Source: Botryllus schlosseri (Eukaryota). From it: a stretch of DNA of 64,000 nt. The position numbers and the translations under genes are program-made. Where the stretch lies: positions 25,546,001 to 25,610,000 of the forward strand of contig CM119372.1 in assembly GCA_051294905.1 (NCBI GenBank). Direction: 5' to 3'. Below, piece after piece: positions 690 to 61,012 of this stretch (position 1 is the stretch's first letter; every line of letters starts with the position of its first letter). The notes beneath the pieces are model-generated. The model was given only the letters and a program-made list of their open reading frames with translations, ran no database searches and had not been told where the DNA came from.

Positions 690-10038
<9,349 letters not shown>

Positions 10039-13700: not shown

Positions 13701-13993
13701 GCAGAAAATATGGCTTGATCATGGAAATGTACCAACCTTTGTATTTCACAAATTGGTTTCAACTCATGATAAGATTTGTACAACTGGTTTCTGTGATAAA
13801 CACTGTGGAAGCCCGTTGGAATGCTTTAATGTAGGGGTGTGCAACGAGGGAGTGCGAGCCAACGCGACACATATATTTCGAGGTAAACGCCTTCTGCTTC
13901 CGGACACATGTCATCCGACAATCGACGAGCATGTCCACTTGTCCAGTGTCCACATTCAAGTCATAATACAAGCAATATCTACTAAATAAATAC

Positions 13994-14624: not shown

Positions 14625-14653
14625 ATAAATACTAGACCGCCCTCAAGATTAAC

Positions 14654-15248
14654 TATAGATAACTAACCTACGGATAGATGGGCAGCACGAGAGTCACGGT
14701 CGAGTGATGCGACAACGGCAGATTTGTTGTCGTTTCATAGCATGAAACGGGAGCGTAATTGCTAATCCCATAGATGACGACCCGAGCGCTCAAATTAAAT
14801 AAAGTTGATCTTATTTAAAAGCTACAGTCGCGCTGATTCTGATAATATACATTAAATTTACATCAAGGCAATGGAACCACCTCGAAAAAGCCTTCAAAAT
14901 ATGAAAATCGGCATTGTTCTAAACAATCGCAACCACGCACGGACCGTTGTTATGGTCATTGTGCTGCGCCGTTGCAATTGTTTTAGAACAATGCCGATTT
15001 TCATATTTCGAAGGCTATTTCGAGGTGGTTCCATTGCCTTGATGTAAATTTAATGTATATTATCAGAATCAGCGCGACTGTAGCTTTCAAATAAGATCAA
15101 CTTTATTTAATTTGAGCGCTCGGGTCGTCATCTATGGGATTAGCAATTACGCTCCCGTTTCATGCTATGAAGCGACAAATCTGCCGTTGTCGCATCACTC
15201 GACCGTGACTCTCGTGCTGCCCATCTATCCGTAGGTTAGTTATCTATA
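14654..15248. mobile_element. Foldback (near-perfect palindromic) element A, TATAG...CTATA
   Basis: ~275-bp near-identical inverted arms; perfect 7-bp TSD GATTAAC at 14647-14653 and 15249-15255. Confidence 0.92.
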
Positions 15249-15262
15249 GATTAACGATCTTG

Positions 15263-15435
15263 CCTTTTCATTTAGCATTGTGATCGAGTTTTGAATTGTG
15301 ACGCAATAATGCTGTCTGTTCCTTCTTCTTGGCTTCACTATAGAATGTAAACATTCTATAGCTTCACTCTCGTTTTACCAGACAGAATTGTTGCGTCACA
15401 ATGTCAAAACTCGATCACGATGCAAAATTCGAGGC
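15263..15435. mobile_element. Small palindromic MITE hosting a 22-bp TATAG...CTATA insert
   Basis: Inverted arms GCATTGTGATCGAGTTTTGAATTGTGACGCAA / TTGCGTCACAATGTCAAAACTCGATCACGATGC. Confidence 0.7.
15339..15360. mobile_element. Minimal TATAG...CTATA element or excision footprint
   Basis: TATAGAATGT-AA-ACATTCTATA flanked by the perfect 7-bp direct repeat GCTTCAC. Confidence 0.8.
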
Positions 15436-15949
15436 TGATTTGGGGGGTTCCAAGACCATGAGCAGAATAAAATTTTATCTTTTCGTAATCGGTACAGCAG
15501 CAGCTTTCCATTTATACCCATTTTATCTAATTTACCGGATTAATCGGATTTCAGTACTCGACTATTTTGCCTTGACGCTAAGATTTTAACATTCTCTTTA
15601 CATAGATCCCTTGGGCGGTAGACCGCGGCCTTCCGAAGGGTTCACGGGCCTCAATTTAGGAATTTAGCGTTACACACTTGTTTTGTTGGCTCATGCAGAC
15701 TCATTTCAATACTTGTTGACATTTCTATCTAAAACGTTCAAAAAAATCTATATTTTGGTAGATGCCAAAAATACCAAAACTACGTTATTTTTGGCATTTC
15801 ACAATTTTTATTTTTGGCAGTTTTGGCATTTGGTTCCCGAAATGCTCAAAATAACACGACCTGCACATTGCACATGTACACTGGATGAAAAGAAAGGATA
15901 ACATAAAAGGACTAGCGATGAAAATCAATGTAGCATATGTTTGTATGCA

Positions 15950-16130
15950 AGGTCGATGTATCATGTCGTGGTCCGGTAATGTTGAGGGCTATATCAGTAG
16001 AAACTGCTTGTATTTCACCTTGAAAGTGAACACTGGACATCCTTGACGACTGTCGGATACTGCTTCACAGTTGTGGTCCAGCATACTTGATAGAACGTTG
16101 ATCGGGGTCGTCAACCAAAAGGCTGGGAAC
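15950..16130 (-). mobile_element. Short CR1-like 3' end fragment
   Basis: Shares gtcgtggtccggtaat, gacgactgtcgga and IKYAGPQL with 12950-13140. Confidence 0.65.
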
Positions 16131-17699
16131 CAATGCTGCATGATACTTGTACACTCGCAGGCTCGGCATCGGTGGGCTTTTTATGCTCCATCCACTCAAG
16201 ACGAACAATGTACAACGCAAGACACACTGCGCTATAAACAGCAGATGGGGGACTATCGAATGGACCAACTACTATGTCTCTTAGAGTCACACCGAAAAAT
16301 TGCATCAAAATGGTAGAGCAATTAAAATGAAAGGTGTGAGTCGGTACAGCCTACGCCAGGGGTTGGCAACCTATACGGCCCGCAACACCGTGTTGTGCGG
16401 CCCCCGGAAGCCTCGAGAATCGTTGTAAAAATATTGATAAAATGCGAACGAATATCAAATTACTGTGGGTATCGTACTTGATTTAACTTTTTCTTAATAT
16501 ATTCTATGACAGATATAGCCCGTCCGTCGTCTGCGGATAGTATACGGCAAGTCCGTTGTCTACGGATATCAGCTTACAGTTTATACTTAACTGACACTTC
16601 CGCAGTAGCTGACACGAACGTCCTGTGTTCGGTGTAGTTCTTGACTGGCAGTTCAATAGAGACGACAACAATTGCCTTTTCCAGATATATTGTACAGTAA
16701 TTCGGATAGTTTTAGCAGTAAGTTTCAGCGTACATGAGTCTCGTATATGATCTATTACACGATATGCGCTAGGTAATATACCAGCGATAAGTCACGTGAT
16801 ATAGCATTATACCATAACAGATAGGAGAGAGAAGGGGCCAGAGCTCCACAATTCTAACATAATAATGATGAGTTATATTCTTATCAAGTTGAGTTTGAGA
16901 CGCCGATCCCGACTTTTATTCACGACTCACTCCCATCTAAATTTGCACTGTGCCCCCGGCTCTTTAAAATCGTATTGTAAAAAGTGCGACTCGATCCCGA
17001 CTCCCGCCTTTGACGAGCGAAGCGAAATGTATTACGGGTCGTGAAGTCTTTACATAAATCGTGTATTCAGTCACGTACAGTGCACGGAACGTCCGCTTAG
17101 CTTGGCCGTCATGAACTGCAGTTCGTCACGTCATGTCGCAGATGACTTGCTCCGCTCAGTCGTCGAGTAATCACGATGTCATTTCGCTTTCGTTATAGGG
17201 CTATTTTAATCTCCGGATAAAAATGACAGGCCCCGACAGAGTACTCATATCGTTTGTTACAACACTGTATAAGTTACTATAGCAGGAGTAGCCAACTAAA
17301 AATGGTTCGCGGGCCACTTTTCAAATTTTGCAGAGGCCGCGGGCCACAAGAATGCAATGTCGAGACAAAATAGGCCACACAGTTGAGCCAGACATATGCC
17401 ACTCCTGGTTTCTTCTACCCAGATCCGTTTTTTTTATCATCACCGGGTTTCTGGGTTTTTGTCCCTCAAATCTGGATTTTTTCAACATCATGTTCGTCAA
17501 GTCAGTTTTACGCTCGAAAATTAATCATTAGATTAATAAGATCATAATATCATAAAATGCACGCTCTTGAGTTCGCCATTGTGAATGGATTTCGCTGTTA
17601 TTGTAAGTTTGTAACGACAGCGTCTTTGAGATACTGTTTCATTACTTAACTGATAGGTCTTCGCGTGATGCGATGGAGCTTCATTGAATAGTAACTTCC

Positions 17700-18570
17700 A
17701 GGTCGCAAAAAGTCATGTTCATAGGGCAACTTATTGGATCCGCTGTCTTACAGTTAAAAACGATTTAAGACTTGAATGCCAGTAGCACTCCAAAAATTTA
17801 GTAACAACAGGGACACTCGGACGGAGACCGAGATCCAGTTGTGTACACCCCCAGCAAGTTAGTCAGAGGCTTTGATGGTTATCAGAACATTCGAATACAC
17901 CCTGAATTTCATGGTTTAGAAGTTATTTTTTCGACTAAACATGGGTCTGTGTGAGTGTGACTATCATGTCGTTCTCAGTTATTCCATCAATATAAACGTG
18001 ACCTGATGCGAGAACTTTCTTTGTTAAAAAAGCAGTTTGTCAAGCCTAAAAATTGTACATTTGCCTAATGGAAATGTATTTCTCTCGTACCAATTGGTAA
18101 TTCTACTTAGATGAAAGAGGAGTATAAAGCTATCAAATTTGTCCCTGGAAAGCTTAACTAAAATACTCATATGCGTCTCATCTCTTTTCACTTGTAAATG
18201 GATAATGGATCTCAGATTCGAATACGGACTAATGATTACAATTTCATATTAAGAAAGGTGCTCACTGCATGGAATCCCTTCTAGGATGCAGTAAGTAAAA
18301 GTTTTTGGAAGATCACAAAGCACCGAACTCCAAATAGTTGGTCCGAGAATTGGTATCTGCATATGGAAACCACGTATCAAACATGAGCATTAAATCTCAC
18401 TTCATGTTCAGTCATCTTGATATATTTTCTAATAATATTGTTGATTAGAGGGAATAGAAAGGGAAATGGGTCCACCAATACATCATAACAACATGAGAAA
18501 GATATCAGTGCAGATGCGACGAACATATTATGGCAGACTTGCCGGAGCCTTTCGAAAAACTGCACTAAAT
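17700..18570 (+). pseudogene. Decayed Chapaev3-like (CMC) transposase
   Basis: Stop-riddled HKAPN...LVRELVSAY...NMSIKSHFMFSHLDIF...ERYQ...IMAD matches the recalled MSLKIHFLHSHLDFF...RYQG motif. Confidence 0.65.
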
Positions 18571-18733
18571 TGCTTACAACCGAAAATAGTACAATAACCA
18601 ATTTTGCTTTAAGATAGGTTATTAATATTATATTCCAACTGAATATTTTGAATTTAAAATAGGTGGTTGACATAAAACTAATTAAATTATTGCAACGTTA
18701 TTTGAGTATCTAGGTATATACTTATATACATGG

Positions 18734-19470
18734 CAGTGTTGGGATCAAGTCACTACCTTCGAGTCACGAGTCATTTCGAGTCACTGCACATTTTGACTCG
18801 AGTCAAGTCAAGTCAATCGATTTTCGAAAGTGACTCGAGTCAAGTCAAGTCACCCGATTTTTGGAGGTGACTCGAGTCAAGTCGAGTCAAGTCAAGTCAC
18901 GAGTCAAGTCACAATTCAAGTCAAGTTGCCTTTTCGAAGTATGGGGCATGATTACGTCATTGCATTATTCTAGCTGTCTGAAATACAGATTGAGTAGTCA
19001 TTGATTCTGAACCGATGAACGAATGCAGAGTTAAATATAGACGCTGTATCGCTCACATTTATGTAGAAGTCAGTGTTGGGATGACTCGAGTCACCTTTTT
19101 CGTATGACTTGACTTGACTCGAGTCACTTTGCAAAATGACTTGACTTGACTTGACTCGCCGTATCAGAAATGTGGATTGAATTGGGACTCGGAGCAAAAT
19201 TAACGAGTCAATTTCAAGTCATCAAGTAATCGGTGTGGATAAAAATCACTGTATCTTGCATATGGTCGAATTGTTCGCGAAATGCTGGCGTAACCCGCAA
19301 TCATTAAATGATTCAATGATTTAATGAGCCACCATTGTCCTCTCGCAAATAAATTGACCTCAAACGAAGTGATCGAAGCTTACAGCTTACGTTGTCGTAA
19401 ACTAGTATAGTAAAGTAATTTAACAGCAAAATGTCTATTTCTGTTTTTACCTTAACCAAGCCTCTTGTTT
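18734..19470. mobile_element. Rearranged CAGTGTTGGG-family element (left end plus inverted right end)
   Basis: Left end at 18734 with GAGTCAAGTC arrays; a right end in reverse orientation begins at 19071. Confidence 0.7.
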
Positions 19471-19652
19471 TATTGATATTGAATTCGAATATAGTTTATA
19501 TAGTTTTCAATCATTGGCGCAGGCTCGAATTGTATCATATCAATTTGTAAGTGGGTAATGTATTGCATCTTATCAATTCGTTTCATTATTCTCTATTCTG
19601 CTAAGAACTATACACTGAGGCTATGCAATTACTTACGTAGTTTAACACTTTT

Positions 19653-20615
19653 CAGTGTTGGGAATCACTGCCTTCGAGTCACGAGTCATCTCGAGTCATT
19701 GCAAATTTTGACTCGAGTCAAGTCAAGTCAATCGATTTTCGAAGGTGACTCGAGTCTAGTCAGGTCACTCGATTTTTGGAGGTGACTCGAGTCCAGTCGA
19801 GTCAAGTCAAGTCAAGTCACGAGTCAAGTCACAATTCAAGTCAAATTGAATTTTCTAAGTATGAGTGATGCTTCAAAGTCATAACATTTTGCCAGCTGCG
19901 TGAATGACAGATTATTAAGCCATTTATCTTGAACCAAATCACGAATATAAAGTTAAATATGCATGCAAAAAGGCGTTGTATCGCACAGACACACGTAGAA
20001 CTGCTAATGAAATAAGTGAGAAACTGTATATAGTTACATGCACAGTCTGTTATTATCAGCTAAAATAGAGGATCGAATACGAAGCCTCGAGAAATTTAAA
20101 CAAATTTATATGGTACAATACACTACCCATCCGTGAGAACTTAAACGCATAAACTATATTCATTCGATTTAAATCATACATGAGGGTTGGTAAAGGTGAT
20201 CACTGCGCAATGTAAGCTCTGAGCCGACTAAGAAACACAGATACGTTGCTATTAATCAACTGCTACTACTACTATGGCAACGTATGCTGTGATCATTCCG
20301 TTTACGGCCAATTTATTTGTGATGTAACAATGGAGGACCAGTGAAACGTATACAAAAGTACATGGCTGGTTGCTCTCACGTGTGTCGTCACCGGCGTATC
20401 CCGAATAGTCCGAATATGCAGTGATTTAGTCAACACCATTTACTTATTGATGACTTGAAATTGACTCGTAAATTTTGCTTCGAGTCACGAGTCAATCCGC
20501 ATTTCTGAAGCGTCGAGTCAAGTCAAGTCAAGTCATTTTGGCAACGTGACTCGAGTCAAGTCAAGTCATACTAGAAAGTTGACTCGAGTCAATGACTCGA
20601 GTCATCCCAACACTG
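19653..20615 (+). mobile_element. CAGTGTTGGG-family hAT-type non-autonomous element
   Basis: TIRs CAGTGTTGGGA / TCCCAACACTG; subterminal GACTCGAGTCAAGTC arrays; homologous to 44832-46334 and 50617-54218. Confidence 0.85.
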
Positions 20616-20859
20616 ATTATTATTAAACCATGTAACAACATTTTGCAAACTTGTAGTCGAGTAAAAATTTTCCTGTATTGTGTTCTGCTATTCTAAACTA
20701 ATCACTAAAATACAAAAAAAAATTCCGAGGTTTCCCTAGTCTTCGAGAAATGTCACTTTTTCAGATTTCTAGTTTTACCCAAAATTTCCATGTAATAATC
20801 AGCATAATTCGTTACTCGTGATTTGCGTCTATGAAATGAGAAATCTTCTCTTATTATGG

Positions 20860-21610
20860 ACCACAAATATAAGCCCCCAGCATAATGATGCATCTCCACC
20901 TTCCTTAGTATCCTCTTTCCAAATCAGAAATATCCTTCTGAAACACTTCACCATGTTCCACGCATACATCACCCATTTATTTGGACTAGAAAAATCAATG
21001 TGAGAGTGCAGGTTATGAGTTTTTAAGGACATGCCCCACTGCATTCTTCCGTGCACTTTTTCATCCATTTTCATACATTATATCGAGAATAGTGTTCATG
21101 TCAGCTCGGAAATCCCATAAACAAAGAAAACAAGAATGCTCTGTATAACATCTTTGGAATCCTGTCAAGAAGCCAATCATTTTTAAATCTCGGCAGAGTT
21201 ACCAGTTGTATATCTGGCATAGTTAATACTATTAAGAAGAAGTTTCACATTTTTGTTATATTTTATCATTCGGGCAGAATGCCCAACGGGTGTAGATGGA
21301 TCCTGGTTTGCATTGCTAGGGAACACTCATTTTGGACGTTAGGAATATCTGCCACTGGCTTAGGTCATTGGCAATTCCTATGTCTTTAAAAAGGTTGTCA
21401 ACATTGCTGCACAAGCAAAGAGACCCTGCCGCAGAAAATTACCTTGAAAATATTTCATGCCTTTTTCTCGCTGAAGAACATCGGCACTTGAATCAAGCAA
21501 GTTCCCTACTTTAAACCTTGAAGTCAAAAGATCCGCATTTGATTTAGTCACGTAACTTTTTAGTTCTTCTGAACCCTGAAATGTCACCCATATTACAGTA
21601 ACAGCCATCT
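20860..21610 (-). pseudogene. Decayed Chapaev3-like transposase (second copy)
   Basis: KSNADLLTSRFKVGNLL and GMSLKTHNLHSHIDF motifs; frameshifted. Confidence 0.65.
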
Positions 21611-22204
21611 ATAAGTTTCCGGGGCTCCTCCAGATTATTTAATACAGGGTTACCAATACGTCATCCTTTAGGAGGATTTGTCCTCCTTTTGCAGGTTTTT
21701 GGAAATGTCCTCCGAGGACCCGTAAATATCCTCCTTTTTGAGATGTTGTCCTCTTTTTTGTGAATTTTTGTTAAACGTAGGGCAAAATCGACTGAGATAG
21801 GCCTACAGTAAATCAGCACTGAAGTAACGTTCCGTCGACTATTTTGGGAGCTGAGCCGGAAAGTTGACCTTTTTTTTGTTGGTCAACCATATAATAATGT
21901 GAAAGAAAAACTGTATTTCGGTCACTGAGCGAGAAAGTTGACCTTTTTCTTTAGTCAACCACCTTTAATGTGTAGGAAAAACTGTAATTTTTACAGCCTG
22001 ACTGTATAGAGTCAAGTGTAGCCTACCTGTTTGATGCTGGTGTGATCAGTCTAGTTGACCTTCACGGTCGTATCGATCATTCCTATCTGATACCGAATAC
22101 TGTGCCAAGTGTGCATGCATTTTTTATGTAACACCATCGTTGCCGTCTGTTTTTCATGTATTTTGGTTGGATGAAAATAAAGACTCTCTCTTTCTTTCTC
22201 TTTT

Positions 22205-23353
22205 TCGAAGTACTCGAGTAGTTATCCTCTACTTCTGGTACTTACTTAAGTAGATCGATTTTTCGCTACTTCTACTTCTACTTCGTAATATTTTGTGAAA
22301 TCTTACTTACTTTTCACTATTTTTAGTTTGTCAATTAGAAGTAGTTTAATCCCCCAGTAAGAAAGATAGCCTAAGCCGCTAAGGAATTTCGGGGCTGTTT
22401 TCACGTAGTACCAACATTTAATTTTCATAAAAGTCATGTAATACCCGAAATTTTCGCTGCGTGACAAATATGTTTTAACGAAAGTATGGCTGAATATAAT
22501 TTAGATACCGGGTTGCGTGGTTCCGTTCACACCACATTGTCGCATATATCAAATATTTCATTACAGTAAGTATGGCCTCCCATAACATTTGAGACTACCG
22601 TTTCGCAATCTAGCAATTACCTATTATACCTAGCAGCCCATGACATGTCCTAATCTGGAAAAGTTGACTTTGACTTTTTTTTTTATGTTAGACTTGTTTT
22701 AGCAGACCACCGTTGAAACTTGCTGGACAAGAGACATGAAATATATTTTCCGCTTGTTAGAAGTAGTATTTTTCGTTCAAATACGAGTATTATACGTTGA
22801 GTTTTAATTATAGTCTCAGTTCTTTTGTCTGGAGAACATGCATGCGGAAGTATAAAAGCAAGTGTAGTAATGCCCTGTATTTTCCGAAAATAAAGCCGTA
22901 TCCGACACAACTTCTCCGTTTTGCTCTTCGACTGAACTAGGGGCCGTATAATATGGGGGAGGGCGCCATGCCATGATATTCTCTAAAACGGGATGTTCGA
23001 GTAAATAAAGGATTAGTATCGCATTTCCATATCAATACTATCATTTACATCCCATGACGTGGACGAGTGCTTATTCTATCAAAATTTGGAAACTCATCAA
23101 TATAAATCAAGCTCTCTACACCTTCCGCATAACTCCATTTGCGGCTTTTGACAGTCCATGCGAACGAATGACGATGATCGTTTTCACAACTACTTACTTA
23201 CTTGAGTAGATTTAAAGTCTGTCAATTCTACTTCTACTTCAAGTAGTTTTAGGTTGCTTATGAAAGAAGTACTTCTACTCGTACTTGAGTAGATTTTCGT
23301 CGTTACTTCTACTTCTACTTGAGTAGCTTTCTTGACTACTTTAACCACCTCTG
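22205..23353. mobile_element. AGTAG/CTACT-repeat TIR element (family of 47138-50006)
   Basis: Subterminal TACTTCTACTT arrays; right end ACCACCTCTG; internal homology to 47412-47480. Confidence 0.65.
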
Positions 23354-23544
23354 CACACTTTAGACCAGGTGTGGGCAAACTACGGCCCGCGGGCCGCATG
23401 CGGCCCTCCACGTCGTTATGTGCGGCCTGCGAGAGTCTAAAGAAACTTATTAAAAATGTTGATAAAACGCGTACTAAAAATCGAATGAAGGCCGGGACTT
23501 GATTAAACATTTTCTTGGTATATTCCACCATGATAATTCAAAGA

Positions 23545-24810
23545 CAGTGGTTCTCCAACTGGGGGCGCACCCCCCTGGTGGTGGTGAAAGCATCTGAAGA
23601 TGGGCGCGAGTCTGAGCTCAACTGAAATTATTTTTCGCGCTTCGCACGATCTACATCCCATTCATACTTGTTGCTCTGCATATTTAGTCTGAATTTTAGG
23701 GATGGTGTGAACTTCTGAAAGGTTCAGGTTCGTGTGAACGCGAACCTTCTTGAAAGGTTCTGTGTGAACGCGAACGTGAACCTCGTGACGTCACGTGACG
23801 CCATATTGCTAATTCCAACCCTACATTTCAGTGAAGTGATACCTAACGACGACTCAGGCCACATTGCTGAAGTAGGCCTACATACTGACTTTTTCAACGT
23901 CACCAAATGTATCAATTGGAGCAATCAAATGATATAATAATCCCATAAAATCAATATCATTCGTCGCATTGTCTACAATTTCGACGAGGAGTTGCAAAGG
24001 AATATAAGCTTACGCCCTAACGGTCTGGGCCAGACCGAACAATGTATTTGGCGTCTGAGTGTTGCTACGTTGATATTGATCAGAGTGTAAACGGGTTTTA
24101 CCCCATTAACCATTCATACAGCAGTAGCCAACATCCCAATCGCACGGATTTGGTTTGTATGATACAATAATCATGAAATCGAGATGGACCCCTACGCTAC
24201 CTAGATATTTTACATCAGAGAACGATATCAATTTAATTGAATAAGCATCATCTGCTGGCTACCTACATGTATAGCTCTTGCTGTTTTGCGTTTGCGGGTC
24301 AAGCTCACAGCAGAGCGTCACTAAATATTCACAAACAGAAAGCTGGATATTTCGAGAAAACATTTGTAACAAAGCAGCTAAAATTTTTGAGATTGTCGAT
24401 GTGCATGTTCGTTAAGTGTTGATTTTTTTATGCTGCCAGCGACATGCATAGAGTGGCCCGCAATTGAAATGTAATAAACTTTAACCAAAGATGGTATAAT
24501 GATGTTAAAATTGTAATATATAAAAAAGGTTCACAGTGCAGAACCTTCCGAGGTTCGTTTGTGAACGTGAACCTCTAAATTTCCGAGGTTCACACACAGA
24601 ACGCGAACGTGAACCTCACGTTCACACCATCCCTACTGAATTTCATATTTAAAAAATCTCTCATCCACTGTCGTAACCTTCCATGCCACTGTCCGTTAGG
24701 TTTGCTAGCATCCTGGTTGCGATTTGTGATATGACGATAAGGGGGTGCGAACTCTTTTACCATCATAAAGGGGGTGGGGTGGCATGTCTTGAAAAGTTTG
24801 AGAACCACTG
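23545..24810. mobile_element. CAGTGGTTC...GAACCACTG hAT-type MITE with nested insertion
   Basis: Matching TIRs; uninterrupted paralog at 55527-55822. Confidence 0.8.
23697..24635 (+). mobile_element. TAGGGATGGTGTGAAC-family hAT-type element
   Basis: TIRs TAGGGATGGTGTGAAC / GTTCACACCATCCCTA; perfect 8-bp TSD CTGAATTT; GTGAAC arrays. Confidence 0.9.
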
Positions 24811-27236
24811 TTCGGAGTTAAATACTTCCTATATCATTTTCTATGTTTAATTTCTGGCGCGACATCCCGATCTCAAGGTCCCCGCAGATTGAATGATTTC
24901 AACTGATAAACATCACATAAATCCCAAACAAGATTGACATAATTCGGATCACTAGTGTGATTTCAGATTGGCCAATCCAGTTTTAATTATTTCAGTGATG
25001 TGCTTATAAAAACGATTCGCGCGTGCTTACGTAGATTCGTTCCTCCAATCTTGGCCAAATTTACTGGAGCCAGAAAATTTCGCACCCTTATGTTCATCAA
25101 ATGCAATCTAACAGTGTCCGAGCAAGCATAGGCGCCGAGTTACGGAGTGGCGGGGTGGCGGCCACCCCGTGTAATTAGATTAAACGCCCGCCGTCTGCGA
25201 TTTCGAATCATCAGCATTAAAACCCCAGGTGTGTAGCCAGGGAGTTCCTCATTTATAACTAGAAATCCCGTCCTTTTGAAACGCCAATTCACTAATTCGT
25301 ATTATCGATGCTGTGTACTGCAAATTAGCGAGAATCATTTGTATGCAAAATGGGTCATCGATATCTCATGTGCACTATCGGCGGTGGTTTGATTTAGCGC
25401 GTCCTTATGTAGGCTCGCTCCCGTTCGCAGATACACTTTCTCCAAACAGTAAAAATCTCTGAGTGCAATATTGTTTGTGTTTATGTATCTTTTTGATTAA
25501 AACTTATGCCCGCGTCTGAACAAATTGTGCTCTTTGCCATTGCCGAATCTGGGTATTCAGGTATGGCTAGCACACCCTGCAATTGTAATTATTGCAGGTT
25601 CGCGGCATGTCTGAATTTCGTTATCAGCGCAACCTTACCGGCCGATTGTACGCACAGTCCTATAAAATTGATCACTGCTATGTATTTCGCACAGCGTACT
25701 GAGGCTGACTTCAGCAAACTAACGATCCTTATTAGATGTACAAATTCGACCTCATCGTTAGAAACGTAGATTGACGACCAAATGCACGTTCACCTTCTAC
25801 AAATTAAGGTGCATTATTTGCATTTATGAGGGCCGCAAGCTGCGTTTGAAGTATTTTGTGAACCATATTTGTGATAAATATTCTCGGAGCGCAAAGTTGA
25901 ACAATGTTTAATTGTGTGTGCCTGCTAGTTGAAATTTATTCCAGTGCCCTTTATATTAATCCAATTATGCTTTGCGTATACGTAAATCGGGAAATGCAGC
26001 AATGCAGTCAAAATCGATGTTTCAAATAGCAACCAATTGTCGCGATGCGAGCCACTCAATACTAAGTAAAAACCCATTGTGTTGGCGGCAAAGGATAATT
26101 ACTGATTGGCCGCGCGCGTTTGTAATCATAATTCTTGTCTGTCTTTCGTGTTCTAGAATTGTCGCGCCGTGTTACTGCTCAGTCCAGCGACGAATGCCGA
26201 GCGCGCGGCAATCAATGACATAATTTCGCAACCGTCGTAATACGAATCTCGCTAATTGGTCGCGGCCCTCGTAACACTAATAATACAACTTGTTGAATTG
26301 CAACTGAATATTAGCGTCAGAATGGTCATTTCAAAAGGACGGGGTTTTGCGTTTGAAAAGGAGGGGGTTTCGACACCCCCCAGCCTGCGTACCATATCCG
26401 ACCAATTTCTCACCGCTATAACTGGCATCATTTCTAAAACTGTGTGTTTTGGTTTTTGTAGCGGAGGTTATTTGCCGGCTGTGGCCATAAAATGCCTAGG
26501 TGGTAGGTGAAAGGTGGGGGTACTTGAAACAAAGCCTTGATGAAAGATTTCTGTTACAAAAACGAATATTAAACACGTTTTGACAGTAGATTACTCAATA
26601 TAGTAGTAGCCTACGTGGAATATCCAAGTCGCGTGTGTCAGTCGATTATTATTTCATACCGCCGTTCCTGACAAACAAGCCCAGTAAAAAAGACCAAATA
26701 AAGAATGACATATAAACAAGAATAAGAAATAGCGACTTGAAACCAATGAATAAAGAATAACGTCGTAAAGATTGTGATTCGGGCACTAGGCCAAGATGGA
26801 TGCCAGATCAAAAGAGCCACAACTGTTTGTTTCAGCATCCTCCCATGTGTTCCTTACATCGTTGTAAGTGTCTCGCGCAGATGAAAATATAATCTGACGA
26901 TTGATTATATTGATTGATTTATGAATCGAATCGATTCGATAGTCTACAACAGGGGTTCTCAACCCGCAGACGTTTATTTTGCGGCCCGCGACATGTTTCA
27001 TTATGAACGCAATTACTACTGAGTACTGTCGCAATTTGTTACATATGAATTAAGCTGCGTTAGCTCTCTTATCGCACCGTCTCTGTTTCGTTTGAACATA
27101 CTCATTCTTCGATGTGTTCTGGTTTCTTGATATATGCTCGGGTTTCGATTCTGATTGTTTTGAATCGGTATATATTCGGCTCGACTCGGGTTCAAGAGAA
27201 TCCCGCTGCGTAGTACACTTAAGGAGAATGTTTCAC

Positions 27237-27811
27237 TATAGAAATTAAACATGGAACGGCAACGACCGATTTTGCAGCTTCGTTCCGCTTCGCCGGGGCT
27301 GGAGTGGAGAATCGTTTTGCGTAAGCGACTGTAGGATTTCTGGCAATCCAAAAGCTATCTTCCCGAGCGCAGAAATTATGGAATCTGGTCTTGATCGAAA
27401 GCTACTGTTGCACCGACTCCGAAAATATACATTAAAATATTGATCAGGCACTGATCCACCTAGAATCTGTCCTCCAAGTCTGAAATGTCGGCATTGTTTA
27501 GAACAATCGAGTAACCGCAACACAATGACCATAACTCTCCGATTGTTCGAACAATGCCGATATTTCAGACTTTGAGGACGGATTCTAGGTGGATCAGTGC
27601 CTGATAATTATTTTACTTTATATTTCCGGAATCAGTGCAACAGTAGCTTTCGATCAAGACCAGATTCAATAATTTCTGCGCTCGGGAAGATAGCTTTTGG
27701 ATTGCCAGAAATCCTACAGTCGCTTACGCAAAACAATTCTCCACTCCAGCCCCGGCGAAGCGGAACGAAGCTGCAAAATCGGACGTTGCCGTTCCATGTT
27801 TAATTTCTATA
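27237..27811. mobile_element. Foldback element B, TATAG...CTATA
   Basis: ~270-bp near-identical inverted arms; perfect 7-bp TSD GTTTCAC at 27230-27236 and 27812-27818. Confidence 0.92.
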
Positions 27812-27858
27812 GTTTCACTCACCAAGAATGGTTTGAACAGAAACAAGAACAAGGAACG

Positions 27859-28239
27859 TAGGCTTACCATATTTTGGAATTCTAAAAAGAGGACACTTTT
27901 TCAGAAATTTGCAACTTGCAAAACCGGAGTAGAATTCTCAAAAACCGATTAATTTTTCCCACTTTGTGACCGGTTGACTAAAAAAAAAAAGAAAAAAAAA
28001 AGGTCATCTTTTCGCTCAGAGCTAAAATCACCGTTTTTCACTCCTAAATACCCGCCGGAGCTTCACTTCTGTGCTAATTTGCGGCATATCACTCGCAATT
28101 TGCTCTAAATCTGACCTAAATTTTCAAAAAAGAGGACAAAATCTCAAAAAAGAGGACAAAAGGGCGTCCTCCGAGGACACTTTCAAAAAAGTCAAAAAAG
28201 AGGACAAATCCTCTTAAAAGAGGACGTATGGTAAGCCTA
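27859..28239. mobile_element. hAT-type MITE (TAGGCTTACC family)
   Basis: TIRs TAGGCTTACCATA / TATGGTAAGCCTA; perfect 8-bp TSD AAGGAACG; near-identical to 45305-45754. Confidence 0.92.
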
Positions 28240-29205
28240 AAGGAACGAGAAATTGAACGGCGAAAACTGGGTTTGTAACTCTGCGTGGAACAATGAATTT
28301 TCTCCCTCAGATACAAATGGAAACCCGACGTGTCATATTTGTCGAAGAACAGTTGTCGTAACAAAGCGTCGAAGCTTAAAATGATACCACGAGAGTTTGG
28401 CCTGGAGTTAGACATATCGCCTGTTCCGGAACTTAGCAGCAAGGACAACATCACCTGACAAATTTTGAAGCTACAATTGTCTGATTCAACCGTGACCGGA
28501 AGAGTATCAGCTATGACAGTCAATTTTTTGTCGCATGTTCTGAATCACTTTGCGGCGTAGACTACTTTAGCCTAGCATTGGGCGAAGCCACCTACTCCAC
28601 AGACATTGCATATAGCTACTTCTCCGGGTTTATTTTATCAGAGTGGACATGGACATATTTGCAGACGAAAAGCTGGCAGGGCATATACGTGGAGAGGGGA
28701 CCAGCAAAAACATCAACTTGACAAAGCTGACTTTTTAACTATCGGTGCAGGGCTCCAGCCACGAAAGGAAAGGAGAAGGGTTGATTGGTTTGCTCAGAAA
28801 TTATCCCGAACTCCAGATTTCTTCTCATATCACTGAAAGCTCAAAGCGACAATGGTCTCTGTAACGGAAAAGTTACCGTAATTTTTCTCGCTCGAACATT
28901 GAAACACGGGTTTTGGTTCTCTGGTTGAAGGGTTTGAAGGCTTGCACACTGCAACGAATGCAATGCACGCTTCATGAAGGGATTTGCTTGCGCCGCTGGA
29001 ACATGGCATATTCTCACAAGAAGCAGTAACTGCAAACTCACGAACGCTGTCCATAACGACTTTAGAATGCATAAAAATCCACTAAATGCCCGTATGTGAC
29101 TGGTAAATATAGGCTACAGTAGCCTCAATTTAATAGTAGCCCACAGATACACGGCAATAATGGTCTGCGGCCCGCAGCGTTTTCTGCTGTTAAAATGCGG
29201 CCCGT

Positions 29206-29261
29206 GAGAGAGAGATAGAGATATGATATTCTTTTCCAATTTTCGAGTCTTTGGTATGACC
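29206..29261 (-). mobile_element. 3' part of a tRNA-derived SINE split by the LINE
   Basis: Minus strand GGTCATACCAAAGACTCG...AAAAGAATATCATATCTCTATCTCTCTCTC; the tail matches the SINE copy at 59517-59539. Confidence 0.7.
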
Positions 29262-32258
29262 GTTTTAGTGATGTTTATTCAAGTATGTACATAAAATATC
29301 AAAAATTTCATAAAGAAAATCTTTCCCCATCATCGGTTCATCTCGTCTCAGCCGTTGCCGAAGTCGGATTCGTATTCGCTGTCGTGGTAGACGCCGTCGT
29401 AGGTTGGCGCTCGTAGTCGCTCGGCTCATCTCATCGCATCAGTCGATGTCGATTCGTTGTTGCGGTCGTAGTAGGAGTCGTCAGTACTTGGCGCTCGTTT
29501 GCGTGTGTTTTTCATATAAATTTGGTGGAGTGGTGAGGGGTGGGGTAGGAATATGGTAGGGTTAGGGGTGGATAGGGTAGGGGGGTTTGTTGTTTAGGGT
29601 TGAGGTAAAGAGGGATGGGATGGGAGGTTTGGGGGGGGATAGGTGGTAGGTGGATTGGTTGGGTTTTGTGGGTCGATAAATACAATACAATTTATCGCGC
29701 GAGCGTTTAATGGGCTCGCTTAAATTATTCGGTATATTTTACTTCTTATATCGTTGATGCGTTCGTCAATATTTTGGGCGTATTCATTTTGTATGTCGAG
29801 TGCATTTTTCCATTCCCACACAAGGGTTTTCACGTTCATAAAAGCTTGTATTATAGTCGGAGCTTGCGGTCCGTCGTAGACGTTGCGTATGATCTCGTCT
29901 GGTGTAGCGTCAATAGTCGTTTGCAGGTCGTTCTCGAGATCCTGTATTACAAGAGAGAACAGTTTTTTGTAAGTTGCACATTCTGCGAAAGTGTGGCGCA
30001 GAGTGTCTTCGGCGTGTTGGCAGAATTTGCATTTGTTTTTCAAGTAGGCATCTTTTCGTCGTACCCAGCCTGCGTTGGTTTTTCTGGAGCCTGTAAAGTA
30101 GCTCTCAGTGTTAATGCGATACGAAATCTCACGTTTCTTGTTGTCAATGTGGTCTTTGATATTGGGTTGGTATAGCCATATCTCTTTCCAGTCCGCCATG
30201 CGGCTTCCTCCTTGTTGCGTCTTCGTTTTAACAAGGATCTGGTACATTTCTTTCTGGCGTAGTTCTTGTATATCTTGTGATTGGCTTTTAATTACGTCGA
30301 AGATTTTCTTTTCCTTCTTCCATTCCTCCGTCAATGTATTTCTGTGAGGGTATAGGTTGTTGTATAAATTGCAATTTATATCTCTCACCTTCGTTGTTAG
30401 ATTGTATATCGCTTCTGCATGCCAGATATCAATCGGGTTTTCGAGTCGACTAAGTTGTTGTAGTCTTTTTGCTCTCTTTGCTTGTGTTGCAGATTCGATA
30501 TCTGGCATATCAATCCCTCCTTCTGGCTTAGGTCTGATCAGTTGTATTCTGCTTTTCTGCTCGAGCTTCTCAGGACTCCACAGTAGGCCGAAGACGAGGC
30601 GTTCGAGTTGCTTGAGCTTGTCGTCTGGAATTTGCTTGTTGGCATATGTATAAGTTATTTTGCTAATTATATATGCCTTAATCGCCGTTATTTTACCAAT
30701 CCAAGAAAGCCGTTTTGATTTAATATGCCTTACGCTTTTCTCGACTCCTTGCCAGAGTCTGTCGAAGTTCATTTGCAGTTCGCTTTCACCGTGGTATAAG
30801 CCCAGTATCTTAATTACTGGCTTCAGCATATGTGCGTGCGCAGTTTTTTGCAGTCTGATACGCGATTTTTCGTTCAGTGGTAGGATTTCCGTCTTGCCTG
30901 TGTTGATATCTTGACCTGTCACTCTATGCAGGCTTTGATATTCGTTAAGGACTGCTGTAATAGAGTCAGTTGTTCTTAGATACAGTGTGACGTCATCAGC
31001 AAATTGGTCTAATTTATGCTCTATCCCGCCGATTCGGATAACTCTGATGTTGTCGTTAGTGCATAGTTTGTGGGCTAGAGGGTCTGCGCTAATCGCGTAT
31101 AGTGTCATACTTAAAGGACATCCTTGTCTAATGCCCCTCGTACAATTTACATTTGCTGCTTGGAGGCCGTTAACCTCGAGGGTCGCAATAGGATTATCAT
31201 ATATGGCTTTGATCACTTTAAGAGTTTCTCTCTTGACGGGCAGTTTATCAAGCACTTTGAACAGCATTTGGTGATCGACCTTATCAAAGGCTTTTCTTGC
31301 GTCTATGGTCATTATATAACCTTCCAAAGGTTTTTCTTGATGATAATTAACAATTGCACTCACATTGTTGTGTATCACGTCCATTTGTCTTCCGGGAATT
31401 CCCGCTTTCTGTGTCATGTTGATGTTGCTCGAAATATCCTCAACCAGTCTGTTGTTGAGAATTTTCGCCATTATTTTGTAGTCCGTGTTTAACAGCGAAA
31501 TGGGTCGCCAGTTCGCTAAATCCTTTTTGTCCTTTCCTTTGTGAATCAAAATAATTTTAGCACGTTTCCAACTATGCGGTATGTTTCCGTATATTAGCGC
31601 GTTGTTTATGATTTCTGTTAATCTCGAGCCAATGTTTTTCCACATTGCAAGGTAGAATTCCACTGTTAGGCCGTCGAACCCCGGCGACCTTTCCCTGTTC
31701 ATTGCTTTCAGTATTTGTAATATTTCGCTAGATTGTATTACCGATGTTTGTTCATTGTCTTTCCCGTGCATGCAGTCTTGCTTATACGATGATAGATATT
31801 CGTCTTGATCGTACGAATTAGTGCCGTCGTGTCGGGTCCACAATTCTGTGTAAAATTGTTCAATCTGGTTAGCAATAATATTACGGTCAGTCGTTACCGT
31901 TCCATCTCTGAGCTGTAGTTCTTTAAGCTCGATCTTGCGCCGTCTGGTCTTCAATTCTTGCCAAAATTGTCTCGTCGTGTTAGATTCACCTTCGCAACGG
32001 TCAATTTTGGTTAACATGCGCAATTTTCCTTTTACCCTCTGATACGTTATCTGAGGGTCACAGGTTTGATATTTGTCTATTTCATATCTCTTGCTTACGT
32101 TGGCAATTCTATCTTTTAGTCTGTCCCACCATTGTTGTATTCCGTGGCAGTGTTGAATATTATTCTCCTCAAAGCTTATGAGATTAGATATTATATCTCG
32201 GTACACGTCATCTCGCAAAAGGTCATTATTACACTTCCAATTTTTTCTTCCCCATAGA
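29262..32258 (-). mobile_element. 5'-truncated Tx1/L1-clade non-LTR retrotransposon
   Basis: Intact RT ORF; ~460-nt 3'UTR; AATAAA (plus-strand tttatt 29274-29279) then a short A run; flanked by GGTCACAC/GGTCATAC (8-bp TSD, 1 mismatch). Confidence 0.88.
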
Positions 32259-32332
32259 GTGTGACCCGGCCGGGAATCGAACCCACGACCAACCGCTCGA
32301 AAAGCCGGACGCATAACCATCACACTATTCAT
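29720..32332 (-). CDS. Tx1/L1-type ORF2 reverse transcriptase lacking the APE endonuclease (870-aa open frame; first ~25 codons SINE-derived)
   Basis: SPGFDGLTVEFY, NWRPISLLNTDYKI, DARKAFDKVDH, GIRQGCPLS, QFADD, EGGIDMPD and the C-terminal CKFC...H...C zinc knuckle; no stops. Confidence 0.9.
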   Translation of the reverse strand: MNSVMVMRPAFRAVGRGFDSRPGHTLWGRKNWKCNNDLLRDDVYRDIISNLISFEENNIQHCHGIQQWWDRLKDRIANVSKRYEIDKYQTCDPQITYQRVKGKLRMLTKIDRCEGESNTTRQFWQELKTRRRKIELKELQLRDGTVTTDRNIIANQIEQFYTELWTRHDGTNSYDQDEYLSSYKQDCMHGKDNEQTSVIQSSEILQILKAMNRERSPGFDGLTVEFYLAMWKNIGSRLTEIINNALIYGNIPHSWKRAKIILIHKGKDKKDLANWRPISLLNTDYKIMAKILNNRLVEDISSNINMTQKAGIPGRQMDVIHNNVSAIVNYHQEKPLEGYIMTIDARKAFDKVDHQMLFKVLDKLPVKRETLKVIKAIYDNPIATLEVNGLQAANVNCTRGIRQGCPLSMTLYAISADPLAHKLCTNDNIRVIRIGGIEHKLDQFADDVTLYLRTTDSITAVLNEYQSLHRVTGQDINTGKTEILPLNEKSRIRLQKTAHAHMLKPVIKILGLYHGESELQMNFDRLWQGVEKSVRHIKSKRLSWIGKITAIKAYIISKITYTYANKQIPDDKLKQLERLVFGLLWSPEKLEQKSRIQLIRPKPEGGIDMPDIESATQAKRAKRLQQLSRLENPIDIWHAEAIYNLTTKVRDINCNLYNNLYPHRNTLTEEWKKEKKIFDVIKSQSQDIQELRQKEMYQILVKTKTQQGGSRMADWKEIWLYQPNIKDHIDNKKREISYRINTESYFTGSRKTNAGWVRRKDAYLKNKCKFCQHAEDTLRHTFAECATYKKLFSLVIQDLENDLQTTIDATPDEIIRNVYDGPQAPTIIQAFMNVKTLVWEWKNALDIQNEYAQNIDERINDIRSKIYRII
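32259..32330 (-). mobile_element. tRNA-derived SINE head (Pol III A and B boxes)
   Basis: Minus strand TAGTGTGATGG (A box, 32317-32327) and GGTTCGATTCC (B box, 32273-32283); 25/27 identity to the head at 59685-59711. Confidence 0.8.
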
Positions 32333-34297
32333 ACACCATTACACCACACGAGGAAAGTTGAGAACCCCTGGTCTACAAGATTCATTTTCTATATCTTTTC
32401 AGTGTATCACTCTTTCCACATAGGCTATTTTAAAATGATTAAAGTAAATCGCGAAGAAATCTAAAATATGGTAGCGAATGTGGAATATATCGTAGAAAAT
32501 AATATTGATGTTTTGTTTCACTTTCCTTATCTACAAGAAACTGACGCCGTTCCGGATATCCAATCCGGTGTTCGGATCCGAACCTACTGCATGTTGTTTT
32601 ATGAAGAAATCAATGGAGAACTAATGCCTCCACAGAATGTAGATCTCTAATGCTTCTATGTAGAGTTTCTATTAACACACAAATGATTCAGATATAGAAC
32701 TATAATGTCGACATCATACTTCATATCCATGGGACTATTTACTGTAAGCGTACAAGTATGACACGTGATCGAACGTAAAACGCATCTCTCTGAGTTCTGC
32801 AATTCAAGATTTCGATTCCCGTTTCAGTCTGGGTTGGGTAAATGTAGTTTTGGGCTTTCATCGAGGCTGGGGTGTGTCTGTCAGTAATATGAGGTTGTTC
32901 TACGTATTACATGCATGGCTGTACCATTTTCCATCATGGGTTGGCGTTTTTTTTTTCGAATTAAGAGATTGAGTTGGCGTTGTTTATGGTATCACGGTGT
33001 TCACGACCGTGTATGTTCTTAGCGCGTCTTGGGCCTTGTTGAAACGAAAGTATAATTGCTAGCTGACACCTTCGTTTCAGCCGTACTATATTCATACTTG
33101 CTATCGTTTCTACATATTCTAATGAGAGGATCCATCATTTGGGTTCTTGGAAATGTGACGTCATATATGTAAACAAGTGTTCTAGGATTCGTAGGGCGTT
33201 GAACGGGACACGAAACACCCAAATAAATGCAATACCCTGTATTGAAATCGCCATTCGGGTGGATGTTAGTTGAGTATAGGTCTGTTCTGTACCTTGTTAT
33301 GTAATGACTGTTAATCGAACTTTTGACCAATAATATCCTATCATAGTCGCCTATTCACCTCACCGGTTGAAATTGAAACTAGGTTTGAATGACATAAGCT
33401 TGACCAATTAAATCTGAATGTAAAATATACCTGGTGTGTGGTGCTAACTGCTCTGAATTTATGTTCTTGAATCTGGAAATGATTCGGCACAAAAATGCTA
33501 CGATATTCCAAAATGCCAGACTTTGCTCAAATAGAATGTCATTTCATTGCCTTATGCACTGAAGAGTTATCCATACATTAGTAAAAAGCTGTTCAATGTG
33601 ATAGTCATGCCCGAGTTAGTCTGTACAGCTAACCTCTGTGAATTGCTATATTACTTCTGTGTCACTGGTCTTATTTTGCCTGTATCCGATTCATCATTGG
33701 TCACTAGTATTATCTGTTCTTAATACACTAAACAAATACTAACAGAAATTCTATCACAAATCTTGATTAAATCGCATGAACTCTGTAAAGGTCCTGCTTT
33801 GTTTTATATTTAATTGTAACAGTTAGCACCGTAACTCAAAGATGTTATGGTACCTACAGTTGGCTATATTGATCTTGTTGCTCCAGATTTAATTGTTCCG
33901 AACACATATTGGCCTAGTACACGAAATTAATGGCAATATATATGTATATGTAACTGACAGAAATTGAACTGATGTGATGAATATATGTAAAGCCGCAAAC
34001 TCATCTCGTGTTAATGAACTAGTGTAGTCTGCTTTTCTCTAAACACCCTTTTATATGCTACCATGCGTATTGTCTTCGTCTTTCATTGAACCCTTACCTC
34101 ACAATGATGACCGATCTATAGCTCCGCCCTGAGCGTCGTCGTATCAGTATTCTTTTGCATGATTGATAGGATGACGTATTGTGGTAAAGTGCATGATCGG
34201 ATTGGCGAATTTTCTACAAATTCTTTGATGATATCTCAATGAATTGTGTGAAATTTTCAGAATAACGTTCTTAATAAGAGTAAAATCTTTCGTTGAA

Positions 34298-39529: not shown

Positions 39530-39977
39530 ACTTTATAGACCGCACCTCAAATCCGAGTTTTGTTAACATCTCGCGATCCACCCATACGTTCAGAACCTCT
39601 CCAATCTTGGCGAAAAGATTGTGTATTCAGACCCCAACTGGTGGAACACGAAAAGGGAATCTATCTCACCCCACATATATGTAAATCAGAGGTCTAAAAC
39701 TCAAATGTGCTCGCGGACCAATTTCCTCATTTTTGATGACGCCGCGGGCCGCAGCATCAATAATAGGGGTATTCAATGTATAATATCCAAGTAGGCCTTA
39801 TTTGACGGAACCTTGCAGACAGGCATTTCACAAACATCGTGAAAATGTAATTTACTAATATACTATTCACGCTTGACACAAAAAAAGATCATATTTTCAA
39901 ATATTTGAATAAAATAGTTTTTGTGCCGCGGGCATAATTCGTTAAAATAATGAGTTATAGACATCATGCGAGAGTAC

Positions 39978-44277: not shown

Positions 44278-44333
44278 CCTCGCCACAATTCCTGTACTCC
44301 TTCCAAACGACCTACTCTTGCCAGTCCACCTAC

Positions 44334-44831
44334 CAGGGTTGTAATGACTCGAGTCGCGATTTTTTGGTTACTCGACTTGACTCGAGTCCATTTTTGTATT
44401 GACTTGGCTTGTATTCGAGTCATTGTGCAGGACTCGAGACTAGGACGACCGAGACTGACATTTCATTGCAACTTCGAAGAATAGTAAAGTTACCCATTAT
44501 TGGTCTATTAGTCCTGATACTTGGACAATAGGGCTAAAAGCTGTCAAGACAGAGGAAAAATACTACATTATGAATGTGAGCCATTCTATATCACTCGAGC
44601 AGAGTTGGAAAAAGTGGATTGAACCGGATTGAACTGATAACTGAACAGTGAACATAATGACTTGGACTCGGACTCGAGTCGAAACACTAGGACTCGGACT
44701 CAACACTCTCCGACTTGGACTCGGACTTGACTGGGTGGTGAATTAAATGTAACTCGACTTGACTCGAGTCAAAACGATGAAAAAGAAATTGAATTGTGAC
44801 TCGGAACCTTGTGACCTGGTTTACAACCCTG
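44334..44831 (+). mobile_element. CAGGGTTGTAA-family MITE
   Basis: TIRs CAGGGTTGTAA / TTACAACCCTG; GACTCGAGTC arrays; paralog at 57568-58163. Confidence 0.8.
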
Positions 44832-46334: not shown

Positions 46335-46389
46335 ACCCGAGTCACCCCAACAGTGCCACCTAGGCCTATGCAGTCATGATTGCATCTCT

Positions 46390-46686
46390 AGTCTATATGA
46401 CTTGCACCGTATAACTAAGGCGATTATTTTGGACCTAACAAGCGAAACAGTTTGCTCTGAAATTTGAGCATAATATTTCACGCTACGGGTGAAGTTTGCT
46501 ACGGCTCTCAATGTTGGTTATCGCCTTCCTATAGGTACCGAACCAAACAAACGATTGTCAAGAAGCCTTTGAAAATTAGGTAGGGATCTACCACTTAGGT
46601 AGAAATCCTGAAGTCGACCTCAGTCGGACTCGAACCCGCAACCTATTGCAGTCCAGCTGTGGAACGTACCACTACGCTATCTCGCC
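46390..46686 (-). mobile_element. tRNA-derived SINE (second family)
   Basis: Minus strand GGCGAGATAGCGTAGTGGT (A box)...GGGTTCGAGTCC (B box) followed by a non-tRNA body; 3' boundary uncertain. Confidence 0.65.
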
Positions 46687-50067: not shown

Positions 50068-50438
50068 TAGGGTTGCATTTAAAACAAAACAAACATGTTT
50101 AAAACAAGACCCTCAATTGTGTCGTCATAGTAGATTCCCATTGACAATTGAAAATATAGGGTAAATATAGCTCCTTTGACGAAATATCAGTACTATTATT
50201 GTTGAACCGACTGTTTTGAGGGTTCCAACCATCTCATATCGATATACGTCTGCTATATCGGGTGGTAATTGTCCGTAGGCTCATAAAACATGTTTTCGGA
50301 AAGTATTATCGCAATTGTGGCATAATTTTACAGCTTGAAAAAAACAATTTAAAAAAAAAGGCCTTTGTTTAAAGCACTGTTTAACACATGTTTTAAACAA
50401 AGTGTTTTAAAACACCGTTTGTTTTTAATGCAACCCTA
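50068..50438. mobile_element. TAGGGTTGCA MITE
   Basis: TIRs TAGGGTTGCATT / AATGCAACCCTA; flanking repeat AGTGCCA; AAAACA arrays. Confidence 0.82.
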
Positions 50439-50616
50439 AGTGCCACCACATATATTTGAATTATATTGTTTTGGTAACTATTACATACTCCGTGTAACCT
50501 GCATACAACAGTTCCGCATTAGCGCTTTCGCCTACGCCCTTCGTCCTACTCCAACTCCTCCAACTCCATTGATCCATTTTTGCATAGTATATCTGAGCTG
50601 TGTGTGTACATTTGGC

Positions 50617-59961: not shown

Positions 59962-61012
59962 CAGTGGTCGGGAACCTATAGCTCGCGAGCCATATATGGC
60001 TCTTTTGGGTATAAGATATGACTCTTTGCCAAATTTTTATTTTTGTATCGAATTGATCAATATTGCAGCAACTTGTTAGAAAATTTGCCTCACGGCCAGA
60101 ATAATTATTCTCGTGACAGTATAAACATGTCTTTGAGAGGTAACGACAATGTCGTCTTCAGGTTTATGGGGCTCGGACCCCTCTTTGCAAAATCCTCAAA
60201 TTGTAATAGCCTAACTGATGCGACGGCGACCAATATCACTCGCGAATTCGATGTAGGCTACCCGACTCGAAATTTGATTGATTGGATTGCGTGATACGTT
60301 GATTGATCAAAGAGAATAGCAGAGAGAGCGACGTCCATATGACAACGACACATTGTTTTCCTGATCTACGGCACGAAATCAGCTGCCGTGGACGTTACAT
60401 TCACAATTACAAACTCGAATTACAAACAATGTCATAGCTATCCACGTTCTTGGTTGGTAAGTAGTTCTGTAGTACCGGCGATAAAATGTGGCGTGCAGCG
60501 CAACGTATGTGTTACCGCCGAATGCATAAAGAATTGAGAATCCGATCAGTATTTAGATTTTCGGAGTCAATGCGACAGCTAGATTCGATTAATGTCAGTT
60601 ATAATAAATTCTAAGCTATTTACGATGAATTGCGTTATCGGTGGTGAGGCTTGGTCCGCCTGTGCCTTACCTCTCGTTTCGCGCTTTATTTCCGAATAAT
60701 AAATATGCATGCACCTACGCCTGTGATCATGGGTTCTCACATTTAAAGGAGCATCACGACGAACCTACGTTCTCGTAACTCAAGTTTCGCGCTTAAATAA
60801 GGCAACCAGCATGATTAGTACTAGTTTATAGAGAGAAAATGTGGCGCACACGATGAATCCCATGTATAGTGAGTTCGAATTAGTGCTACTATGACGTCAC
60901 GAATTTCCAATTGTGACATAACAGTTGATTGACATGGATGGCTCTTTGAGACTTAAAATGGAAAAAATAGGGCCAATACGGCTCTTCGGACAAAAAAGGT
61001 TCCCGACCCCTG
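59962..61012. mobile_element. hAT-type non-autonomous element
   Basis: TIRs CAGTGGTCGGGAACC / GGTTCCCGACCCCTG; GGCTCT(T/C) subterminal motifs. Confidence 0.72.

Follow-up and report, generated by a model that had tools for sequence, protein, structure and literature searches.

The 64,000-nucleotide (nt) stretch of the Botryllus schlosseri genome analysed here, called the window below (contig CM119372.1 of assembly GCA_051294905.1, positions 25,546,001 to 25,610,000 of the forward strand), contains two palindromic elements, A and B. We read them, with a probability of roughly 0.7, as diverged members of one high-copy, non-coding foldback clan, whose copies are likely to be cut and pasted in trans by a putative P-superfamily (Galileo/1360-like) transposase acting on their ends. 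Their arms are likely to have been recopied from one another, and the motifs at their centre are likely binding sites. [quoted passage not shown] Their parts are as follows.

14647..14653: left target-site duplication of A, GATTAAC
14654..15248: element A, a 595-bp non-coding foldback, with high depth in public contigs over 14905-15248
14660..14757, + strand: outer arm of A, left copy, unalignable with B; its letters are replaced in sister subfamilies (joints on the mirrored right arm)
14758..14905, + strand: inner arm of A, left copy; its identity to B is 68%, and it has conserved blocks that also occur in a degraded relative, element C
14906..14927, + strand: left dyad of A, at the inner end of the arm, 20/21 identical to B
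14949..14968, + strand: asymmetric 20-nt loop motif of A, 19/20 identical to B, containing a fifth ATTGT copy
14979..14998, + strand: right dyad of A, mirror of the left dyad
15249..15255: right target-site duplication of A
27230..27236: left target-site duplication of B, GTTTCAC
27237..27811: element B, a 575-bp foldback, with its centre at 27487-27561
27516..27535, - strand: copy of the 20-nt loop motif in B
27812..27818: right target-site duplication of B

A sequence-only reading of this DNA had described A and B as palindromes with matching ends and perfect 7-bp duplications, and this description is borne out. Both elements start with TATAGA and end with TCTATA, and exact 7-bp direct repeats flank each of them, GATTAAC around A and GTTTCAC around B (a chance of about 8e-5 per element). 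The left and right arms of A differ by 4 substitutions and one 3-bp indel over the first 270 bp, those of B by 14 substitutions and one gap. Short, without coding capacity, and bounded by long terminal inverted repeats (TIRs) and end duplications, both elements have the features of a MITE or non-autonomous foldback element.

The arms of A and B are themselves related. The earlier reading had found no similarity between them and had taken them to be unrelated and freely exchangeable, naming a sensitive alignment as the test that could refute it; in such an alignment the inner 150 bp or so match at 68%, which refutes the claim for the inner arms. Identical residues occupy 99 of 146 ungapped columns on the left and 99 of 147 on the right, and the local alignment score of 47 is reached by none of 1000 shuffles (8.9 +/- 1.3). 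A blastn comparison of A with B gives 70.9% identity over 350 bp (E 1.5e-31). The outer 100 bp or so, for their part, are at chance level (score 10 versus 7.5 +/- 1.3, reached by 77 of 1000 shuffles). From end to centre, identity runs from 6/6 at the terminus through chance level in the outer arm to 68% in the inner arm and 20/21 in the dyad, followed by an unalignable loop in which the motif matches at 19/20.

Four of 24 listed public sequence runs, X2, X5 and X6 (contigs; X2 may be the source of the window itself) and X23 (RNA reads), were aligned to positions 14905-15720 at 80% likeness; the variants, joints and loose ends quoted from these alignments are the best supported ones, and a further 160 variants, 97 joints and 1115 loose ends exist. 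The matches comprise 10,424 contigs in X2, 3,588 in X5 and 617 in X6, and 147 reads in X23. Divided by a rough depth for single records, summed depth amounts to about 6,300 (X2), 2,100 (X5) and 115 (X6) over the core, to 9,400, 5,100 and 350 in the best inner-arm bin per element, and to 1,500, 1,000 and 60 over the outer arm of A. From this ranking, core and inner arm are common to more copies than the outer arm of A. Overall, depth is about 10^2 to 10^4 times that of single long records, roughly a thousandfold on arms and core, as an order of magnitude only, which is what a high-copy family at dispersed sites should give. Contigs that leave A at its right end show a loose consensus, G followed by TTAGAC, and their poor agreement (only 0.39) points to many insertion sites. 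Joints from 15130, 15142 and 15146 to 15223 and 15228 belong to sister subfamilies that keep the last 25 bp or so of A and the inner arm, with other letters in between. The proposed modularity is thus retained in the replacement of outer-arm segments between sister subfamilies, and given up as concerns unrelated or freely exchangeable arms. No RNA run was listed as a carrier of the elements. Among the 147 RNA reads of X23, 141 align only partly and 92 are less than 90% alike; they stem from other copies and are uninformative on a dedicated RNA.

Within each element the two arms change in step, in agreement with the homogenisation suggested earlier. The inner arms span 148 columns: in 95 of them all four arms agree, in 41 A and B differ and yet each element is the same in both its arms, and 12 behave otherwise. 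At 9 positions checked because much of the public depth carries another base, the arms of A agree with each other in 8 cases; at 15045, about 99% of the X2 depth has another base, and still the two arms of A have the rare base in common. Since the arms agree even at rare variants, new variants seem to reach both arms early in the life of a subfamily. We infer that arm homogenisation is episodic, by a mechanism that may resemble the repair-driven TIR remodelling and conversion proposed for Galileo (PMC3573991).

Three further pieces of the clan were found in the window.

15270..15533: element C, a degraded relative; its right arm is homologous to the A and B arms, its left arm is mostly lost, and it has ATTGT-N6-ACAAT dyads and a different loop
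15332..15367: D, duplications included; a 22-bp remnant (15339-15360) of a B-like element, flanked by 7-bp duplications GCTTCAC, within the loop of C
60552..60612: weak inner-arm fragment of the clan (nhmmer E 7e-4 and 5e-3)

Element C was found with a profile of the four A and B arms (nhmmer, 15422-15533, E 1.9e-7, and also E 7.5e-9). It matches itself at 74% over 164 bp and has high depth in the public contigs. These contigs extend the arm of C across a block that A and B have in common, before they diverge. An inverted pair at 13940-13983 and 15996-16039 (82%) encloses A, C and D, and may represent the ends of an older host element.

The ends of D are the same as those of A and B: 14 positions match the first 16 bases of B, and the remnant is closed onto the other end through a 4-bp microhomology. 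Contigs of X2 and X5 skip D, with joints from 15316/15318 to 15359/15363, and because these sister copies lack it, D is a scar of insertion into this copy of C. The cut made by P transposase has a stagger of 17 nt (PMC7776569), and end-joining at P excision sites with 17-nt overhangs gives junctions like that of D (PMC2895639, Table 1). The single remnant fits a 17-nt staggered cut leaving at most 17 bp of each end, and is likely a P-type excision footprint, although slippage yields a similar product. Between the first and last 120 bp of B there are 84 four-base direct-repeat junctions; in 4 of them neither end retains more than 30 bp, so that a slippage product as short as D would be uncommon but possible.

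The conserved centre is present largely as first described. With as many as 3 mismatches allowed, the window has the shared 20-nt motif at two places and no more, 14949-14968 (plus strand) and 27516-27535 (minus strand), where 0.02 occurrences would be expected. The ATTGTT-N2-4-AACAAT dyads said to form mini-hairpins on both sides of it are there as well. They are not features in their own right, however, since each dyad is where one arm ends towards the centre, one being the mirror image of the other, and the predicted fold has the two paired together within the long stem. Central conservation takes the form of blocks that exceed the arms. Dyad and motif together are identical between A and B at 39/41 positions versus 99/146 in the inner arm (Fisher 2e-4, for windows picked after looking), and two windows of at least 19/20 arise in 1.6 to 5.3% of simulations over 203 columns, and in 0.04 to 0.17% within the 57 central columns. 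Next to the motif, the loop segments of A and B are unalignable (3/6 plus a 15-bp gap on one side, 3/10 on the other), a variant joint at 14947 changes the loop right at the motif edge, and the consensus of an X5 subfamily retains the kernel CAATGACCA amid different neighbours. The short words ATTGT/ACAAT occur five times per centre in A and B (three of them independent of the mirror) and four times in C, whereas 250 bp of each left arm contain none and the window average is 0.4 per 100 bp; clusters of four copies at 7881-7988 and 46080-46197, outside these palindromes, indicate that 4 in 93 bp can occur elsewhere. That blocks are kept while the letters in between change is better explained by binding sites than by a recently swapped centre, and constraint seems to extend beyond the centre, because the inner arms of A, B and C also have conserved blocks in common. 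Judged from sequence, the central ATTGT/ACAAT blocks may be candidate cis-acting sites for protein binding; to our eye, their letters resemble SOX/HMG-box sites.

Concerning the enzyme, a P- or Galileo-type interpretation of the 7-bp duplications had been put forward, and it is supported by the target motif. The target-site duplication is 7 bp long in all three cases (A, B and D), and both Galileo and 1360 make 7-bp duplications (PMC3698922). Galileo prefers the target GTANTAC (PMC4168063), and the 1360 target motif is GTTNAAC (PMC3276498, Table 4). Compared with the latter, the duplications of A, B and D agree at 5, 5 and 4 of 6 positions, a total of 14/18 that is equalled by 3 of 200,000 random triplets from the window. 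In the P group, the motif ANAGT..ACTNT is found (PMC3276498), and the last three bases of the P element rebuild the target motif of the group (PMC2577343). The clan's junctions fit this motif and its rebuilding by the element ends, on the right side in part: target plus left end reads ACTAT at all three junctions, and right end plus target reads ATAGT, ATAGA and ATAGC, one exact and two with one mismatch. The pattern suggests that the clan probably works like Galileo and 1360 and is P-mobilised, filed in neither family.

A number of observations weigh against the reading of A and B as P-mobilised elements with recopied arms and a functional centre. Depth sums are not true copy numbers and differ threefold between X2 and X5, and only their order of magnitude and ranking are used here. 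The 3-bp arm indel of A occurs in both states across the family (22 to 35% of depth), and homogenisation is incomplete, the arms of B differing at 14 sites. D could also arise by slippage across the palindrome. Taken whole, the centre (45/57) does not differ significantly from the inner arm (99/146; Fisher 0.13), and a single 19/20 window is expected by chance in 17 to 23% of simulations (150 to 200 columns). The kernel CAATGACCA is altered in the consensus of the X23 RNA reads, and C (about 15270-15533) is without the 20-nt motif, whose role as a universal core is thus not supported. As for the ends, those of the P group are described as being of the CA..TG type, for which a fuller consensus is known. 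All three elements instead begin with TA, their first base being T, and for this reason the clan is not filed as a member of Galileo or 1360. IS3EU/GingerRoot elements typically have TA..TA ends, and their duplications are usually of 6 bp (PMC10045372); A, B and D have such ends, but with 7 bp in all three cases. Finally, all three targets read G-N5-C, and the letters could formally be taken as a duplication of 5 bp, each end then gaining one base; counter to it stand only 10 contigs of X6, which leave after 15248 with another base.

How far the centre requires an explanation of its own can be asked in several ways. It is possible, if unlikely, that it is a passive relic, functionless in these copies, which descent or a recent exchange among subfamilies, as for Galileo subfamily E, has preserved. 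One central region has been published together with the TIRs of three Galileo subfamilies (PMC3573991), and both the lack of a significant excess of whole-centre identity over the arms and the fact that C does without the motif agree with such a relic. However, a recent swap predicts one continuous block of high identity, and the loop beside the motif is unalignable, with the joint at 14947 and the X5 consensus placing loop changes at the very edge of the motif. A coding constraint, according to which the loop motif would be the start of the gene of the parent element (promoter end and first codons), maintained in autonomous parents, is rather improbable. The block does begin three bases before an ATG, and MVIVLR can be read in A and B with silent differences; nevertheless this makes six codons only, any of six frames could have been picked, no shared frame continues further, the consensus of the X5 subfamily has no such ATG, and a THAP-like start pattern has no match at either centre. 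Conversely, the centre may be given a more active part, as a cis-acting module whose five ATTGT/ACAAT copies at the palindrome axis recruit a host DNA-bending protein that joins both ends or triggers arm-to-arm copying, module and inner arms passing between outer-arm and terminal cassettes fitted to different P-type transposases. We regard this extension as doubtful, and no central enhancer architecture of such a kind was found described in the literature searched.

Two other explanations concern the way the elements move. A mover outside the P superfamily, whether from IS3EU/GingerRoot, where ends are TA..TA, or from hAT or Mutator in a 7-bp variant, seems distinctly improbable to us: although the ends are like those described for IS3EU/GingerRoot (PMC10045372), and foldback shapes are described for Mutator-type elements as well, IS3EU duplications are usually 6 bp long (PMC10045372), the target motif and the way it is restored agree with the P group, and the hAT-like elements of the window have 8-bp duplications and short repeats. 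The model offered with the sequence-only reading, here widened to include a replication origin, has a conserved core that serves as nicking site or as hairpin-RNA loop and from which unrelated arms, freely exchanged, are templated; it would account for the blockwise conservation of the centre, for arms in step and for replaced outer-arm segments. It is nonetheless very unlikely, as the homology of the inner arms of A, B and C largely refutes it, C has spread without the motif, and the duplications, ends and footprint D point to ordinary, end-directed cut-and-paste. A structured RNA is not indicated either, no Rfam family matching at its gathering score; the scan gave two hairpin matches in B below threshold (49 and 31 bits versus gathering scores of 211 and 100), and none in A.

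For P-mobilised elements with recopied arms, a sequence of events can be proposed. A P-type enzyme would cut the ends with a long stagger and insert the element into GTnnnAC-like targets, and after excision as much as 17 bp might remain from each end, as in D. Occasionally, break repair or template switching at the hairpin would rebuild one arm from the other, and the rebuilt copy, carrying the same new variants in both arms, would found a new subfamily. Turnover would be quickest in the outer arms, which probably follow the different transposase partners. At about even odds, and as the weakest step, the ATTGT/ACAAT copies and inner-arm blocks would persist since copies that keep them move more.

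Several known systems resemble the clan in part. The likeness to Galileo rests on architecture, duplications and target motif. Like the clan, non-autonomous Galileo copies made of two TIRs have long TIRs with little between them and form several diverged subfamilies per genome, with 7-bp duplications of a GTnnnAC-like palindromic target and a centre common to different TIR subfamilies (PMC4168063, PMC3573991). Unlike Galileo, the clan has ends that start with TAT, a length of about 600 bp without tandem repeats, a far higher copy number, and a conservation that peaks at the centre, whereas that of Galileo peaks at the TIR ends. 1360 has short TIRs and, in contrast to the clan, is not a foldback element. 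With 1360/Hoppel/ProtoP the clan shares the 7-bp duplication and the GTTNAAC motif, at 14/18 positions (PMC3276498, PMC3698922). BuT5, a MITE whose partner is a divergent P element, is likewise a non-coding, high-copy passenger of a P-type transposase, but it has 3-bp TIRs, 8- to 9-bp duplications and ends as its most conserved part (PMC3698922). The PIF/Harbinger MITE mPing provides a precedent for internal sequences that raise or lower mobility; it belongs to another superfamily, however, is not foldback, and its internal sites are not described in the source as a central motif array (PMC9921582).

The window is animal DNA, with a MADS-box (SRF-TF) exon at 690-1106 and a SET-domain exon at 35314-35682 (Pfam). 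We take the former to be a MEF2-like MADS box, and the SET-domain gene (34694-36514) presumably resembles an H4K20 methyltransferase; the family names are ours, Pfam giving SRF-TF and SET. Short inverted-repeat elements with 8-bp duplications are numerous. One hAT-like element (26950-32370, with 18-bp repeats and the 8-bp duplication GTCTACAA) has B nested inside it, together with a 381-bp element at 27859-28239 with an 8-bp duplication and an 872-aa reverse-transcriptase frame on the minus strand (29720-32338; Pfam match 29723-32338). Elements with short TIRs and TAGG/CAGG ends, which we assume to be hAT-like, lie at 23697-24635, 45305-45754 and 51916-53894 (8-bp duplications) and at 50068-50438 (7-bp). 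Elements with internal short-unit repeats fall into two families, with GACTCGAGTCAAGTCAA-type and GGAGTC-type units, and are located at 18750-20600, 44300-46400, 50600-50900 and 54000-58200; and at 39970-42520 and 51915-53895.

Beyond this animal, the composite core pattern gave no locus in the metagenome collection. The core motif was found at 4 viral-contig loci and 1 prokaryotic-genome locus, the match being limited to the 18 to 23 bases searched, and no flanking arms were present at the 4 viral loci. With a pattern of the dyad architecture, matches came from 46 loci in metagenomes and from a single viral one, and arm homology was absent from all of them. Among the 52 loci collected, none matched the arm profile, and the longest outward extension (48 bp, at locus L050) was without arm homology. 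The metagenome, viral and prokaryotic matches, having no arm homology, were treated as chance and not as true relatives. Locus L050 itself, an unrelated metagenome sequence, contains at 950-1110 a palindrome of about 160 bp centred on repeated ATTGTT/AACAAT units. No description of this foldback family was found in the literature searched, a weak negative given that most subscription papers, as well as Repbase and Dfam, fall outside its coverage.

The clan adds a high-copy, non-insect case of Galileo/1360-like target choice, with ends that start with T, and D adds a probable natural footprint of P-type excision. If the central motifs are under selection, the clan would offer thousands of natural variants with which to ask which internal sequences make non-autonomous elements succeed, and it would also inform on how the two arms of a foldback element stay alike.

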